Source: a virus (Duplodnaviria > Caudoviricetes). Taken from it: DNA of 64,000 nucleotides. Below the pieces are notes generated by a model, which saw only the letters and a list, made by a program, of their open reading frames with translations, was not told where the DNA came from and searched no databases. The DNA is taken from IMG/VR virus record IMGVR_UViG_3300031994_000044, positions 42,308 to 106,307 of that record; one strand, given 5' to 3'. This document shows, one piece after another, positions 5,718 to 47,977 of this stretch. The stretch's first letter is position 1; the number at the start of each line of letters is the position of its first letter. A program made the translations under genes and the position numbers.

Positions 5718-6515
5718 ATGGAAAAAAATGAATATATATACCCAAGAACAATACTTGGACTTGATGTAAGTACAACTTGCATCGGCGTGTGCGTTGTTAA
5801 AGACAATGGTGATGCAGATAAGCCTGAATTACTGTATATCGGCCATATAACACCAAAAATATCAAGAAAAGTAAAAGGCATTGAATCTTTGTTTCTGAAA
5901 AAACAAATTTTTGAAACAGAATTTCTACCTAATATCTTAGAAAAATATAAAATAACCGATGTTATTATAGAAGAACCCTTATTATCTTCAAATAATGTAA
6001 ATACCGTTGCAACATTGCTTAGGTTTAACGGTATGATTTCAGAATCAATATACAAATTACTTTCTATTGTTCCAAATTTTATTTCCTCATATGATGCAAG
6101 ACTCTATTCTTTCCCCGAATTGGTGTCTGTTAGGAAATACAACAAAAAAGGTGAAGAATATCCTTTAAAACACATTAAAAAGGCAATTGAAGATAATAAA
6201 GCGGTCTTATTTGGCGCATATCCTTTTGATGTTGATAAGAAAACAGTTATGATGAACATGGTAAATGAAATGTACCATGACGGAGAAATTGAATGGCTCT
6301 ATAACAAAAACGGAGAATTGAAAAAAGAGAATTTCGATGCTTGTGATTCACTCATTTGCGCTTTGGCCTACATAAACATAAACCATCATGGACTTGAAGC
6401 AGTTAAAATTGACAATGTATCTTATTCAGAAACTTCGGAAAATAAAACAAAAATTGATTATGTTACCAAAATTTGGGATAAAATATATAATAAAACTATA
6501 ATACTTGAAAACTGA
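5718..6515 (+). CDS. RuvC-like Holliday junction resolvase
   Basis: 'ILGLDVSTTCIG' (first acidic residue), 'VIIEEP' (Glu) and 'FDACDSL' (Asp pair) match the RNase H/RuvC catalytic layout. Confidence 0.8.
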   Translation: MEKNEYIYPRTILGLDVSTTCIGVCVVKDNGDADKPELLYIGHITPKISRKVKGIESLFLKKQIFETEFLPNILEKYKITDVIIEEPLLSSNNVNTVATLLRFNGMISESIYKLLSIVPNFISSYDARLYSFPELVSVRKYNKKGEEYPLKHIKKAIEDNKAVLFGAYPFDVDKKTVMMNMVNEMYHDGEIEWLYNKNGELKKENFDACDSLICALAYININHHGLEAVKIDNVSYSETSENKTKIDYVTKIWDKIYNKTIILEN

Positions 6516-6658: not shown

Positions 6659-7453
6659 ATGGCAAGAAATAACCAAAAACTTATCAACTTCCACACAAGC
6701 GGCAATACAGAAGTGCCGTTGGAATCATTGTTCTACGGCGAAATCGCCGTAAGACACTGTTCAGGCGATTCAGCCGCTGAACTTATTATCAAAAACTCGG
6801 AAAACACAAGCGCTGTTTTCGTTGAAACGGCAAAAATGTGCATCGACTGCGGAACTTGGGACGGCGGAGATTCACACGAATATGTCGACCTTGGATTGCC
6901 TTCGGGTAAAAAATGGGCAACCTGCAATATAGGTGCTGAAAACCCCGAAGATGCAGGTTTGTATTTTCAATGGGGCGACACTCAAGGATATACCGCTGCA
7001 CAGGTAGGTACGGGAAAGATATTTGACTGGGAGCACTACAAATACAGCAACGATGATGGCTCTCAAATGACCAGATACAATTCAACAGATGGACTCACTG
7101 AATTGTTGCCTGAGGATGATGCTGCGACAGCAAATTGGGGCAGTGAATGGAAGATGCCTACATTGGCTGATATAGAGGAATTGACAACCGAGACCACTTA
7201 TAGTGTTGATACCGTCAATAATGTGTCAGGTATGAGATTCACTGGTAATGGCAATAGTATTTTTGTTCCTTTTGCTGGTGACGCTAACGGCAGTAATGTC
7301 AGTGACGTTGGCAGGGAAGGCTACTGTTGGTCAAGTTCTCTTAGTAGTGGGAGCATTAATAACGCTCATAGTCTTATCAATAATCAGGGGGATGCCTTCG
7401 CCGACCTCAGCGACCGTTACTTCGGCTTCTGTGTGCGTCCTGTGCGTGTTTAG
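6659..7453 (+). CDS. Tail-fibre/adhesin protein with C-type-lectin-like C-terminal domain; probable DGR target
   Basis: The N-terminus is paralogous to ORF 9148-10410. It continues 'HEYVDLGLPSG.KWATCNIGA..PE..G.YFQWG' and ends 'G.YCWSSS...R..GFCVRPVR'. GC is higher than in neighbours and the 3' end has a run of NNC codons. Confidence 0.75.
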   Translation: MARNNQKLINFHTSGNTEVPLESLFYGEIAVRHCSGDSAAELIIKNSENTSAVFVETAKMCIDCGTWDGGDSHEYVDLGLPSGKKWATCNIGAENPEDAGLYFQWGDTQGYTAAQVGTGKIFDWEHYKYSNDDGSQMTRYNSTDGLTELLPEDDAATANWGSEWKMPTLADIEELTTETTYSVDTVNNVSGMRFTGNGNSIFVPFAGDANGSNVSDVGREGYCWSSSLSSGSINNAHSLINNQGDAFADLSDRYFGFCVRPVRV

Positions 7454-7490
7454 AACCAATAAAAACAAACAAAAGAACAACTTATAAAAA

Positions 7491-7522
7491 TGGGGTGACA
7501 ATAATTTGCCACCCTTTCTTTT
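7491..7522. terminator. Terminator hairpin between convergent genes
   Basis: GGGTGACAA-TAAT-TTGCCACCC flanked by A and T runs. Confidence 0.7.
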
Positions 7523-9147: not shown

Positions 9148-10410
9148 TTACCATTCACCACAGTCAATTACTATTGCACTTAAATCAAGTGTTGCAGTAC
9201 CGCCAGTGGTGTAATTAGCAATAACACCGCATTGTGTGGATTGAGTACCAGTTGATGAGGCACCTGTACCTGTTAACTCAAAGCCTTGTAATGCTTCATT
9301 CCACTTTGTTTTATCAGCAGTTGTTACATGGACATTGGTATCACCTATATGTTGTGTTATTGCAGTAGCAGCATCGTTCCAAGTTGTTTTGTCTGTTGTT
9401 GTTACGTGAATTGTAGTATCAGCAGTATGTGCTGTTACTGTTGTATATGCTGCATAACCTGAAGCGGCGTTAGTTCTAATCTCAGCAAGGTCTGTAATGG
9501 CATCTTGTTTACCACTCCATGTTGTTTTGTCTTCAGCTGTTACGTGGATTATGGTATTAGCAGTATGTGCTGTTAATGTATCGTTAATACCTTGTACAGT
9601 ACCTGTTGTTGCATAAGTTGCACTTAATGCATCAATCTCACCATTAACATACTCTTTTGTTGCATATGTACTTAAATCAATTGTACCACCAAGTGCATCC
9701 CATCCACTACCGGTCCATGCATAATTGGTTCCCGCTGGTGTATCACCATGTGCTGCAACAACATTCCAAACGTCACCAGTTTTATTATCAGTAGATGGTA
9801 ATTCTCCATAAGTGGCTTTTGAACCTTTATATGTATAAACTGTTGAAAGTGTATCATAGACATAATTTGCAATATAACCACTAACAGTATCTGTATAAGC
9901 TGTTGCATCAGTATATGCTTTAGAAGATGCTGTATTCGCATAAGTTACAGCGTTATTATATGCATTGCCAGAACCTGCATTTGCATATTCTATTGTTGCA
10001 TAATTGTATTCTTCAATCTGAGTTTTAACGTCATCTGTTGTTAAGTGTATTGTACTATCACCAGTATGTGCATACAATGCAGTTGCAATATAACCACTAA
10101 CGGTATCTGTATAACCATTTGCGTCTGTTACCGCTTCGGTATAAGCATTAGCAGAAGCACCATTTACATATTCTATGGTAGCATAAGTGCCTGTTAAGGC
10201 TTGTGTAATCATATTAGCAACAGCAGCACTTTCAATAAAAATAGCCTGTGATGCGGATTCATCATTACTACCAGTTTTAATTATCAACTGTGCGTTACCA
10301 TCGGCTGAGTGTTTTACAGCAATTTCACCGATTTTCAATTCAGATAATTGGCTTGAGCCAAACTCGGTCGTACCATGATAATTAATTAATTTTTGCGATT
10401 TTCTTGCCAT
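9148..10410 (-). CDS. Tail fibre-like structural protein
   Basis: T/A/G-rich. N-terminal 'GEIAV' motif, four H-x-x-(D/N)-x-x-(I/V)H repeats, duplicated 'YTDTVSGYIA', C-terminal IDCGEW. Late motif upstream. Confidence 0.7.
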   Translation of the reverse strand: MARKSQKLINYHGTTEFGSSQLSELKIGEIAVKHSADGNAQLIIKTGSNDESASQAIFIESAAVANMITQALTGTYATIEYVNGASANAYTEAVTDANGYTDTVSGYIATALYAHTGDSTIHLTTDDVKTQIEEYNYATIEYANAGSGNAYNNAVTYANTASSKAYTDATAYTDTVSGYIANYVYDTLSTVYTYKGSKATYGELPSTDNKTGDVWNVVAAHGDTPAGTNYAWTGSGWDALGGTIDLSTYATKEYVNGEIDALSATYATTGTVQGINDTLTAHTANTIIHVTAEDKTTWSGKQDAITDLAEIRTNAASGYAAYTTVTAHTADTTIHVTTTDKTTWNDAATAITQHIGDTNVHVTTADKTKWNEALQGFELTGTGASSTGTQSTQCGVIANYTTGGTATLDLSAIVIDCGEW

Positions 10411-35711: not shown

Positions 35712-36644
35712 TTAATTAATTCCTAAACGCGCTTTGAGTTTTAGTATCTCATCATACAATTTATCAATTGCAGCCAATGCAACTATTGATAATTTGTCAT
35801 ATGCAACAGCATATTCACCATTTTCATCGACATTGACAAGTTCGGGATAAATTTCTTTCAGTTTTTGTGCTGAAGTACCGATATTTACACCTTGAGGTTC
35901 ACCGCTTTTCCATTCAAAATACTGTTTAGGTATTATTTTCAATTCTTCAAGATTGCATCTAATATTACCCTTGAATGTTTTAAGTGTTTCATCTGACAAT
36001 GAATATAAAAGACCATTTGTCATGTAAACATTTGCATTTGTATTAACATTAGAAGTATTAAAGACTGAATTAGTTGCACTTGAACCTATTAAATAACGTT
36101 TTGAGTCTGAAGCTGATAATGTAATTGCATTATAATTAGTACCATTAGCACCTGTTGGACCTTGTGGACCTTCTTCTCCTGTAGGACCTTGTGCACCTGT
36201 TGGACCTGTAGGACCTGTATTACCTGTTGCACCTGTAGGGCCTTTAGCACCCGTAGGGCCTTGTGGACCTGTTGGGCCTATAGCACCCGTAGGTCCATTT
36301 ACTGTCGGTATTGTTAATATTTTTCCTCTTGTGCCTTGTGTTATTGTTGGCGTTACGACCGTATCACTCATTGTTGCAGCGGTAATAATATTCATATCAG
36401 TATAATCCATTGCATTCACCAATGCATTTGCCGCATATTCAGATGCTTCTGTTTTAGAGGCAAAATTTGTGCTATAATATTCATTTTCCATGAATAATGC
36501 AACACTATCATCATACTTTTTTGTTGCTAAAAATGATTTACCTGTACCAGAGGCATAATTAACATAGACCTCACCGTAATCCATTGTGACCGCTGACGGG
36601 ATTTTATCAACTTGATTACTTTTCTTTAAAATAACTTTTGGCAT
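35712..36644 (-). CDS. Collagen-like tail fibre with C-terminal intramolecular chaperone (peptidase S74-like)
   Basis: N-terminal 'P....DYGEVYVNY', about 18 Gly-X-Y triplets, and 'SDETLK...IG.SAQ.L.EIYPELV...VAYDKLS...AI..L'. Confidence 0.85.
36137..36300 (-). repeat. Gly-X-Y collagen repeat (GPT-rich)
   Basis: [53 protein letters not shown]. Confidence 0.9.
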
Positions 36645-47140: not shown

Positions 47141-47977
47141 TTAATATCCAAATATATCTTTTAAATCCATTTTATTATTTGCAATTTCTTTTGCAATTGT
47201 GTTATAATCCACAAAATCATCAATATCACCTTTTGTTATTTTATATTGTGGGTCATCTGCTCCATTGTTATCTGACTCGTCACTATAATTTTCAGGCGCA
47301 TAATTGTTCATATACTCATTTGGTGTCATGGTATATGGCGATGATTTTGTTGAGCGCATTGTCAGCCTTTGTAATGGGGTCGGGTTTCTTTTCTCGATTT
47401 CACTCTTAAGACTTCCAAGGTATTGATTTGTATGCGCGTCAATATCATTGATACGTTTTTCAATATTGTCAATTGAAGAAATCACTTTTTCAAATTTAGA
47501 AGTTAATGCATCAACTTTTTTCTCTGTATCTTCTTGTGCGTCAGTTAAATCATCAATTTCGACAACATCATCTTCTGGACCAGGTACTTCAGGACCATTT
47601 GCTGCATTGGGGTCTTCGCCCATTGGCATATCAGCATCAGGACCGCCACCCATAGCATTGGGGTCGCCACCCATACCATCCATGGAAGCATTAGGGTCTG
47701 TGTTTTGTGGATTGAAACCTTGTGGTGCTTGCCCACCATCCATTGGCGCACCCGCATCAGGACCACCACCCATAGCATTGGGGTCGCCACCCATTGGCGC
47801 ACCCGCATCAGGACCACCACCCATAGCGTTAGGGTCGCCACCCATTGGCGCACCCGCATCAGGACTACCACCCATAGCGTTAGGGTCGTTTTCGTCCTCA
47901 GCAAGGTCAGTCGTTGTTACAACATATTCAACTAAATGTTTGAAATTACTTTTAATTTCATTAATGTTCTTAGTCAT
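47141..47977 (-). CDS. Hypothetical acidic protein with G/P/M-rich repeats (possible head scaffold/core protein)
   Basis: GGDPNAMGGGPDAGAPM repeats followed by a coiled coil; late motif upstream of the operon. Confidence 0.65.
   Translation of the reverse strand: MTKNINEIKSNFKHLVEYVVTTTDLAEDENDPNAMGGSPDAGAPMGGDPNAMGGGPDAGAPMGGDPNAMGGGPDAGAPMDGGQAPQGFNPQNTDPNASMDGMGGDPNAMGGGPDADMPMGEDPNAANGPEVPGPEDDVVEIDDLTDAQEDTEKKVDALTSKFEKVISSIDNIEKRINDIDAHTNQYLGSLKSEIEKRNPTPLQRLTMRSTKSSPYTMTPNEYMNNYAPENYSDESDNNGADDPQYKITKGDIDDFVDYNTIAKEIANNKMDLKDIFGY
47603..47888 (-). repeat. 51-bp coding tandem repeat (about 3 near-perfect copies plus degenerate copies)
   Basis: Unit ccattggcgcacccgcatcaggaccaccacccatagc(a/g)tt(g/a)gggtcgccac at 47740, 47791 and 47842. 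Confidence 0.9.

Follow-up and report, generated by a model that had tools for sequence, protein, structure and literature searches.

The open reading frame (ORF) at 6659-7453 on the plus strand of the window (the whole stretch of 64,000 nucleotides analysed here, which forms part of a 106-kb phage record, G000) is intact and encodes a protein of 264 amino acids. We put at about 50% the probability that this gene specifies a small plug-in receptor-binding protein of a rumen huge phage of ~360 kb, in which a docking module carries a lectin domain and the lectin domain ends in an orphan variable region (VR) of DGR type, written elsewhere or earlier.

To our knowledge, prokaryotes and phages have no natural system other than DGRs that directs hypermutation to particular proteins. 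DGR targets are usually recognised by an adjoining reverse transcriptase (RT) and template repeat (TR). Here, receptor-binding genes bear a footprint typical of DGRs, although the phage type they belong to apparently lacks the machinery. If such VRs are fossils or imports, recombination would be able to carry pre-diversified binding tips into phages that have no DGR, and DGR targets would be over-called wherever codon footprints are the sole criterion; if they are active, DGRs would act on phage genes remotely or in trans, an arrangement that is excluded by design in current surveys. The gene also pinpoints the module by which an uncultured huge phage of the rumen would recognise its host, namely a short docking module to which either a fibre shaft or a lectin tip can be joined.

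The features of the region are listed below. The genes g1a, g1b and g1c are the three lectin genes of G001 (IMGVR_UViG_3300031994_003784, 147 kb), a second record probably belonging to the same phage type.

6659..7453, plus strand: ORF of the proposed plug-in receptor-binding protein; its TAG stop is aligned with CAG in relatives
6659..6838, plus strand: docking (anchor) module, amino acids 1-60, common to fibres and a paralogue
6842..6859, plus strand: IDCGTW motif, equivalent to the C-terminal end of long fibres
6872..7450, plus strand: C-type-lectin-like domain of the DUF1566/Lcl_C/Fib_succ_major kind, amino acids 72-264, from homologues and predicted fold
7280..7432, plus strand: putative DGR-type VR, 51 codons, from codon bias and a substitution hot spot
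7394..7429, plus strand: run in which 11 of 12 codons end in C, with NNC at the same place in g1a, g1c and g1b
7433..7481, plus strand: A-free GC-rich 18-mer (VRPVRV codons) and 31 nt of 3' flank, from the comparison of G000 and G001
7493..7514, no strand assigned: hairpin with T runs on both strands, read as a bidirectional terminator of convergent genes
9148..10410, minus strand: repeat-rich fibre of 420 amino acids with the same docking module, ending in IVIDCGEW; the module's normal cargo

Gene Architecture and Docking Module

The ORF closes as the earlier note on this DNA had read it, with GYCWSSSL...DRYFGFCVRPVRV followed by a stop, and it is flanked by a RuvC-like gene (5718-6515) and a convergent ORF of 345 amino acids. 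The 420-aa repeat-rich fibre gene lies 1.7 kb away on the opposite strand. Residues 1-60 match this fibre (9148-10410), which is a PHROG tail protein, with 49% identity (E 8e-8), and they also match a 269-aa paralogue at G000:15873. In the nearest large relative, G004, the syntenic place is occupied by a fibre of 501 amino acids that has the same N-terminus (61% identity) and ends in LIIDCGDW, and at the DNA level the module is ~100% identical to that of g1a. The gene therefore shares its N-terminal attachment module with fibre genes of the same phage type, and the fibre anchor noticed earlier stands as a docking module common to fibres.

The docking module passes directly into CIDCGTW, which is followed by the lectin domain. 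Since IDCGTW corresponds to the C-terminal end of long fibres (IVIDCGEW, LIIDCGDW), the gene can be described as a shaftless fibre fused to a lectin. Judging from this architecture, the protein would be attached to the virion and its lectin domain would bind a ligand on the host surface, probably a glycan.

The TAG stop of the window gene (region 7451-7462) stands opposite CAG (Gln) in g1a and g1b, both of which continue for three codons (...VRVQNQ) to a TAA; the window also has a TAA, at 7460-7462. The TAG looks like a nonsense change that removed three amino acids, and it is read in this way because recoding of TAG is unsupported in the 106-kb record. Genetic code 15 (TAG = Gln), considered on account of the TAG/CAG stop alignment and of matches to Lak phages, was rejected: coding density was 83% with code 15 as compared to 80% with code 11, six TAG-ending ORFs had short read-through, and there were no suppressors among the 22 tRNAs. 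These 22 tRNA genes form a block, all on the minus strand, at G000:20380-27698, upstream of the window, and G001 has none.

A hairpin of 9 pairs (7493-7514) begins 40 nt past the stop. Given this position and the T runs on either side, it is best explained as a bidirectional terminator between convergent genes, and the alternative of a DGR cruciform was rejected. The hairpin that had been reported after the stop is thus present, but as a terminator it provides no evidence for a DGR.

Family and Fold of the Lectin Domain

Residues 72-264 have 7,572 homologues at E <= 1e-3, which are mostly from Bacteroidales and often contain two domains in tandem. Non-phage homologues begin at E 4e-83, and many carry precomputed hits to PF07603, PF09603 or PF26707. 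The direct Pfam match to Lcl_C is weak (residues 161-263, 16.5 bits against a cut-off of 34.9, E 0.011), and neither PHROGs nor NCBIfam contained a match to the window protein. Membership in the DUF1566/Lcl_C (PF07603)-Fib_succ_major family is established through the homologues and through the family motifs DLGLPSG..WA..N.GA, DDAA.NWG..W.MP, W.SS and R..G..VRPV, all of which are conserved in the window protein.

The ending W.SS...A...R..G..VRPVR is conserved across the lectin-domain homologues. Residues R253, G256, R260 and V262 are invariant in an alignment of 15 sequences (A1) and at least 90% conserved in one of 120 sequences (A2) drawn from the family, which has more than 7,500 members, most of them bacterial. 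The earlier note had taken 'G..VR.V' as the signature of a VR, which is wrong, given that this conserved end is found family-wide (>7,500 members); VRPVR belongs to the family scaffold and is no mark of a DGR.

A model obtained with AlphaFold (AF2) and the 120-sequence alignment reached a pLDDT of 97.4, and a single-sequence model (pLDDT 36) was discarded. Foldseek found no significant match for the model in the PDB, and a profile search of PDB sequences with the window protein found none. With VIA-align, the top matches among 48,161 chains were all CLec folds, including the C-domains of Bd2740 (Z 7.8) and Lcl (8q4e; Z 7.3, rmsd 3.1 A, 103 residues aligned, rank 2 of 48,161 chains), followed by TvpA (6.6), BACOVA_04982 (6.3), Mtd (6.2), an FGE paralogue (6.0) and TaqVP (5.9). 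Four of these matches, TvpA, BACOVA_04982, Mtd and TaqVP, are DGR variable proteins. In BFVD, the best named rows were phage Fib_succ_major and DUF1566 proteins (prob 0.97). Although each Z is middling, the match list is consistent and a sequence link to PF07603 exists, and for these reasons we regard the predicted CLec fold as secure; the structure prediction that had been suggested as a check thus returned the expected fold.

As in DGR targets, the VR lies at the C-terminal end of the CLec domain, with the hot spot at 7280-7432 directly before the constant end. DUF1566/DUF823/Fib_succ_major C-termini make up the DGR target category 'd'/CLec2 (Wu et al., 2018; PMC5758913), and Bacteroides phages also use DGR targets of the DUF1566/Fib_succ_major type (PMC8143477).

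Codon Pattern of the C-Terminal End

The earlier note pointed to a run of C-ending codons, and the run at 7394-7429 (GCC TTC GCC GAC CTC AGC GAC CGT TAC TTC GGC TTC; 11 of 12 ending in C) proves to be the maximum of the 106-kb record, having the highest 12-codon C3 count among the 76 ORFs of at least 100 amino acids. C3 is 12.6% in the genome and 28% in the gene, and the run also departs from the codons used for the same amino acids elsewhere in the gene (Fisher p = 2e-5). Over the entire VR, taken between the P.AG motif and the VRPV end, 86% of the codons end in a pyrimidine as compared to 57% in the upstream lectin (p = 2e-4), with C3 at 43% vs 19% upstream, G3 at 10% and A3 at 4%. Among five copies compared, the window VR has the strongest codon bias, and the paralogue at G000:15873 is without it. 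At ten variable codons the third-base C is retained among the paralogues while positions 1-2 are altered, and this in a genome of 32% G+C.

The gene as a whole has a G+C content of 45.8% (vs 31.7%), the highest of the 76 ORFs. The GC-rich tract that had been described before the stop was also found, as the A-free GTGCGTCCTGTGCGTGTT at 7433-7450.

Some of this pattern does not point to a DGR. The VR-equivalent regions of the bacterial family members are poor in K/E/Q/M/W (median 10% vs 20% upstream), so that the family as a whole accounts for the amino-acid make-up and, with it, for part of the NNY bias. Also counted against a DGR footprint are the many A-rich AAT/AGT codons that are kept in the 5' two thirds of the VR and the indels by which VR copies differ. 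A foreign donor with C-rich codon use could lie behind part of the C run.

Variation among Related Genes

The window gene is ~100% identical to g1a over the first 230 nt and ~75% identical in the lectin. Compared with g1b, the lectin is ~90% identical over 400 nt, drops to ~55% in 7280-7432 and is then identical again. Synonymous sites are saturated between the window VR and those of g1a and g1b (dS about 0.96), and these are therefore different VR types whose comparison is uninformative on DGR. The nearest relative of the window VR is P0003, in comparison with which 19 of 51 VR residues differ against 12 of 135 upstream (p = 1.4e-5), together with two VR indels. All 19 of these VR substitutions, against 7 of the 12 upstream, are third-base-compatible, P0003 being known as a protein only.

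A different situation is seen between g1a and g1c, which share a block of 192 nt with 4 differences, after which 33 of 161 VR columns differ. The VR changes amount to 31.8 non-synonymous vs 1.2 synonymous (dN 0.313, dS 0.038, dN/dS about 8), whereas dN/dS in the upstream lectin is 0.31. Within the 33 differing columns, 23 have A in one copy, 22 are transversions and none is a C/T difference, and setting the variable columns to A gives an Asn-rich, template-like reading. As far as aligned sequences can tell, this pattern is what DGR adenine mutagenesis leaves, and we know of no other process that would leave it. The claim of a variable 3' end thus holds for the last 51 codons before the constant end, which are a hot spot of change with an adenine-mutagenesis-like codon pattern.

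The last 18 coding nucleotides and 31 nt of the 3' flank (7433-7481) differ at one base between G000 and G001. This stretch forms the 3' limit of variability and fits the position of a putative IMH, the only inverted repeat being 40 nt downstream. An IMH is a constant, GC-rich sequence where mutagenesis ends on the 3' side, and a GC-rich inverted repeat often lies close behind it. The stretch remains near-identical although the adjoining VRs are saturated with changes, and it may bound the lectin cassette as a site of recombination or recognition.

Further observations concern the exchange and decay of these genes. Two proteins from JGI contigs of 1.4-1.7 kb, P0003 and P0006, have the same third kind of N-terminus, which is not the anchor; P0003 carries the VR type of the window and P0006 that of g1a, which indicates that lectin 3' halves are exchanged among genes. 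A protein search restricted to the VR returned only P0003 and P0012, and no protein outside the small phage group had the VR scaffold. In its conserved W-S-x motif, g1a (L007:10001-10822) is one codon shorter than g1c (L010:1225-2004); short direct repeats (TGGTC TGGT) enclose the deletion, which looks like the result of replication slippage.

Search for the Mutagenesis Machinery

The records G000 and G001, which are 29% and 41% complete, respectively, comprise 253 kb together. G001 lies in contig Ga0247610_10000068, which extends beyond it by 13.9 kb and 2.6 kb, and the scans covered the G001 part. Except for the fibre genes, the two records have no DNA or proteins in common. They have the same G+C content (31.7%) and a tetranucleotide correlation of 0.997, and on G004 (302 kb) G000 maps to ~156-262 kb and 33-52 kb and G001 to 0-106 kb and 272-301 kb. 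Based on this shared composition and the complementary parts of G004, the two are probably pieces of one phage type of ~360 kb, of which ~70-80% would be sampled. Eight relatives, found via an SbcC-like protein, were included as well; identity in this protein is 51-80% for seven of them and 39% for the most distant, G011, and their completeness is 25-100% according to CheckV (100%, 93% and 82% among them). Only one of the eight has a lectin gene, which is distant from that of the window, and the closest relatives have none.

No match to RVT_1 (PF00078) at E <= 1 was obtained in G000, G001, the eight relatives or the complete Lak-A1 and Lak-C1, and G000 and G001 contain neither a member of the Avd-like family PF05635 nor ORFs with RT motifs 4-5. 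A-aware scans, in which a mismatch was counted only where the candidate template is not A, were run over both strands of G000, G001 and G004 with full-length VRs and 60-nt pieces; they recovered VRs only and no template, and a single match in G004 at ~123.8 kb was dismissed as A-rich noise. The earlier note had proposed a BLAST search for a second copy, and with 7200-7460 against the 106-kb record only the self-match was returned. With patterns of the A-free scaffold, the VRs of G001 itself were the only matches in IMG/VR and JGI metagenomes, and GTDB species genomes gave none. The 17-mer GTGCGTCCTGTGCGTGT gave three matches in IMG/VR (L013, L014 and L015) that were rejected as chance, L014 and L015 lying in records without an RT and without a match to the protein, and L013 and L015 being G+C-rich (51% and 56%). 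A DGR cassette adjoins none of the five lectin or anchor genes.

Neither a cognate template nor an RT (usually accompanied by Avd) was thus found over ~70-80% of the genome, which extends to the whole 106-kb record the earlier observation that both are missing from the 64 kb. The proposal made along with it, diversification in trans, is left without evidence, as RT and template are absent from the phage, its sister fragment, the eight relatives and the public collections scanned.

Origin of the Variable Region

We contend that the 51 codons at 7280-7432, before the invariant VRPVR end, would be the ligand-facing variable region, and that their NNC/NNT codons, with change confined to codon positions 1-2, would represent the footprint of DGR adenine mutagenesis. 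Given that RT, Avd and template repeat are absent from the searched DNA of the phage type, the VR appears to be an orphan, and a DGR acting in a donor or an ancestor most likely wrote it. The gene is foreign in composition (46% vs 32% G+C) and has mosaic relatives; the VR probably came in with it by recombination and would now alter only through recombination and ordinary mutation. Such an orphan import fits because the whole gene is foreign, its relatives are mosaic and the closest relatives are without lectin genes. The slippage deletion in g1a and the CAG-to-TAG change in the window can be seen as small signs of ordinary decay. Since template and RT were sought and not found, the gene is not filed as a DGR target.

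An active DGR would require that the VR is being rewritten now by an RT/Avd/TR cassette located in the unsampled 20-30% of the genome, or acting in trans from the host or a co-resident element. We regard this as unlikely and keep it under consideration because of the near-zero synonymous divergence of g1a and g1c: a dS of 0.038 and a 192-nt block with 4 differences, next to 32 non-synonymous VR changes, suggest recent targeted mutagenesis, which is easier to reconcile with an active system than with an old fossil. The 3' boundary (A-free and GC-rich) and its flank, kept in an IMH-like manner beside change-saturated VRs, and the fragmentary state of G000 and G001 (29% and 41% complete) are also in favour of it. 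DGR components are able to act in trans and non-adjacent targets are known, although remote targets are unexpected for phage DGRs (PMC5758913). The cassette, however, is found beside none of the five lectin/anchor genes, adjacency being the usual arrangement in phages; RT, Avd and TR are absent from 253 kb that cover complementary parts of the genome, and RT is absent from eight relatives including genomes that are 100%, 93% and 82% complete. A DGR of the host should have a target of its own sharing the VR scaffold, but this scaffold occurs in no protein outside the phage group, and no further copy of the A-free scaffold turned up in JGI metagenomes (G001's sample included), IMG/VR or GTDB genomes. 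A new homing event would, in addition, erase a one-codon slippage deletion such as that of g1a. A far bolder version, in which an RT-less clade of huge Bacteroidales phages has several lectin-tip VRs rewritten during infection by outside machinery, either a host or co-resident DGR in trans or an RT-independent mutator, is in our opinion very improbable; if it were true that outside machinery rewrites these VRs, this would be the first case of phage receptor-binding genes that owe their diversification to borrowed hypermutation machinery.

It is also conceivable, if doubtful, that a DGR was never involved, in which case the binding loops of lectin tips would evolve fast through paralogue recombination and positive selection, and the C-ending codons would stem from a G+C-richer Bacteroidales or phage donor combined with the Tyr/Ser/Asn/Asp/Gly-rich make-up of the family. 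We retain this explanation because the family favours these residues in the stretch and no template was seen. Consistent with it, the foreign composition extends beyond the VR to the entire gene (45.8% G+C), the equivalent region of bacterial homologues has the same amino-acid bias, and the motif cited in the earlier note is family-wide; recombination mosaicism is clear, with indels between VR types, RT or TR was found nowhere in the DNA searched, and the window VR is saturated at synonymous sites too when compared with g1a and g1b (dS about 0.96). The codon usage of a donor, however, would lift G3 alongside C3, whereas the VR has 86% pyrimidine-ending codons with G3 at 10% and A3 at 4%, and C stays the third base at ten variable codons across paralogues in which positions 1-2 change. 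The ratio of 31.8:1.2 non-synonymous to synonymous changes, without any C/T difference, in 52 codons beside a 98%-identical block exceeds by far what ordinary positive selection would give, and the substitutions relative to P0003 are third-base compatible in 19 of 19 cases in the VR as compared to 7 of 12 upstream. We regard an orphan VR, with the DGR at work in a donor or an ancestor, as the simplest account.

Comparison with Known Systems

The window gene resembles the category 'd'/CLec2 DGR targets, such as LdtA of Legionella and the targets of the Bacteroides uniformis 'Bacuni' phages (PMC5758913, PMC8143477), in having a C-terminal DUF1566/Fib_succ_major CLec domain. As in these targets, the gene of a putative phage receptor-binding protein has a variable stretch of ~150 nt followed by a GC-rich 3' end that is constant, and its NNC/NNT codons appear to change at positions 1-2. 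In contrast, template, RT and Avd were found neither in the phage type of the window nor in the collections scanned, VR copies differ by indels, and the hairpin, 40 nt downstream, is read as a terminator and not as an inverted repeat beside an IMH. A tblastn search against the Bacuni phages gave no match at E <= 1e-5.

The best structural matches, the C-domain of Lcl from Legionella pneumophila (PDB 8q4e) and that of the Bdellovibrio fibre Bd2740 (PDB 8oks), align over ~100 residues with 13-19% identity to the window protein, and their Z below 8 lies in the range for a common fold only. The Lcl C-terminal domain is the founder of Pfam PF07603. Bd2740, like the window protein, bears its CLec domain at the C-terminal end. 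The window domain is larger than both (~195 amino acids), with an extra N-terminal half that contains DLGLPSG..WA..N.GA.

Surface proteins with tandem DUF1566/Fib_succ_major domains from rumen and gut Bacteroidales (P0004-P0120) are 40-50% identical over the lectin domain (E to 1e-83) and share all conserved motifs with the window protein, including W.SS and R..G..VRPVR. The bacterial proteins begin with a signal or lipoprotein N-terminus and usually carry a tandem pair of lectin domains, whereas the phage protein has a single one, placed behind a docking module. The G001 lectin genes belong to the same phage type and lectin family, their anchor and 3' flank match those of the window gene, and RT and TR are likewise absent; the window VR differs from theirs in being of another type, closest to P0003, with the strongest bias of the five copies.

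Lectin genes of Prevotella Lak megaphages, which are huge Bacteroidales phages without an RT, were the only matches in the phage-genome collection (28-35% identity). The Lak-A1 copy has a Lys-containing C-terminal region, and the frame of the Lak-C1 copy is cut short.

Repeats Elsewhere in the Window

Two further regions of the window are repetitive. Positions 36128-36307 show a 9-nt periodicity with 13 overlapping copies of a 72-nt unit, located inside a minus-strand ORF (35712-36644) that is probably collagen-like and whose match to an 870-aa ORF of G001 comes in repeated pieces. At 47604-47896, repeats of ~71 nt with spacings of 120, 51 and 51 nt are hosted by the ORF at 47141-47977, which is the second most G+C-rich ORF of the 106-kb record (41.6%).
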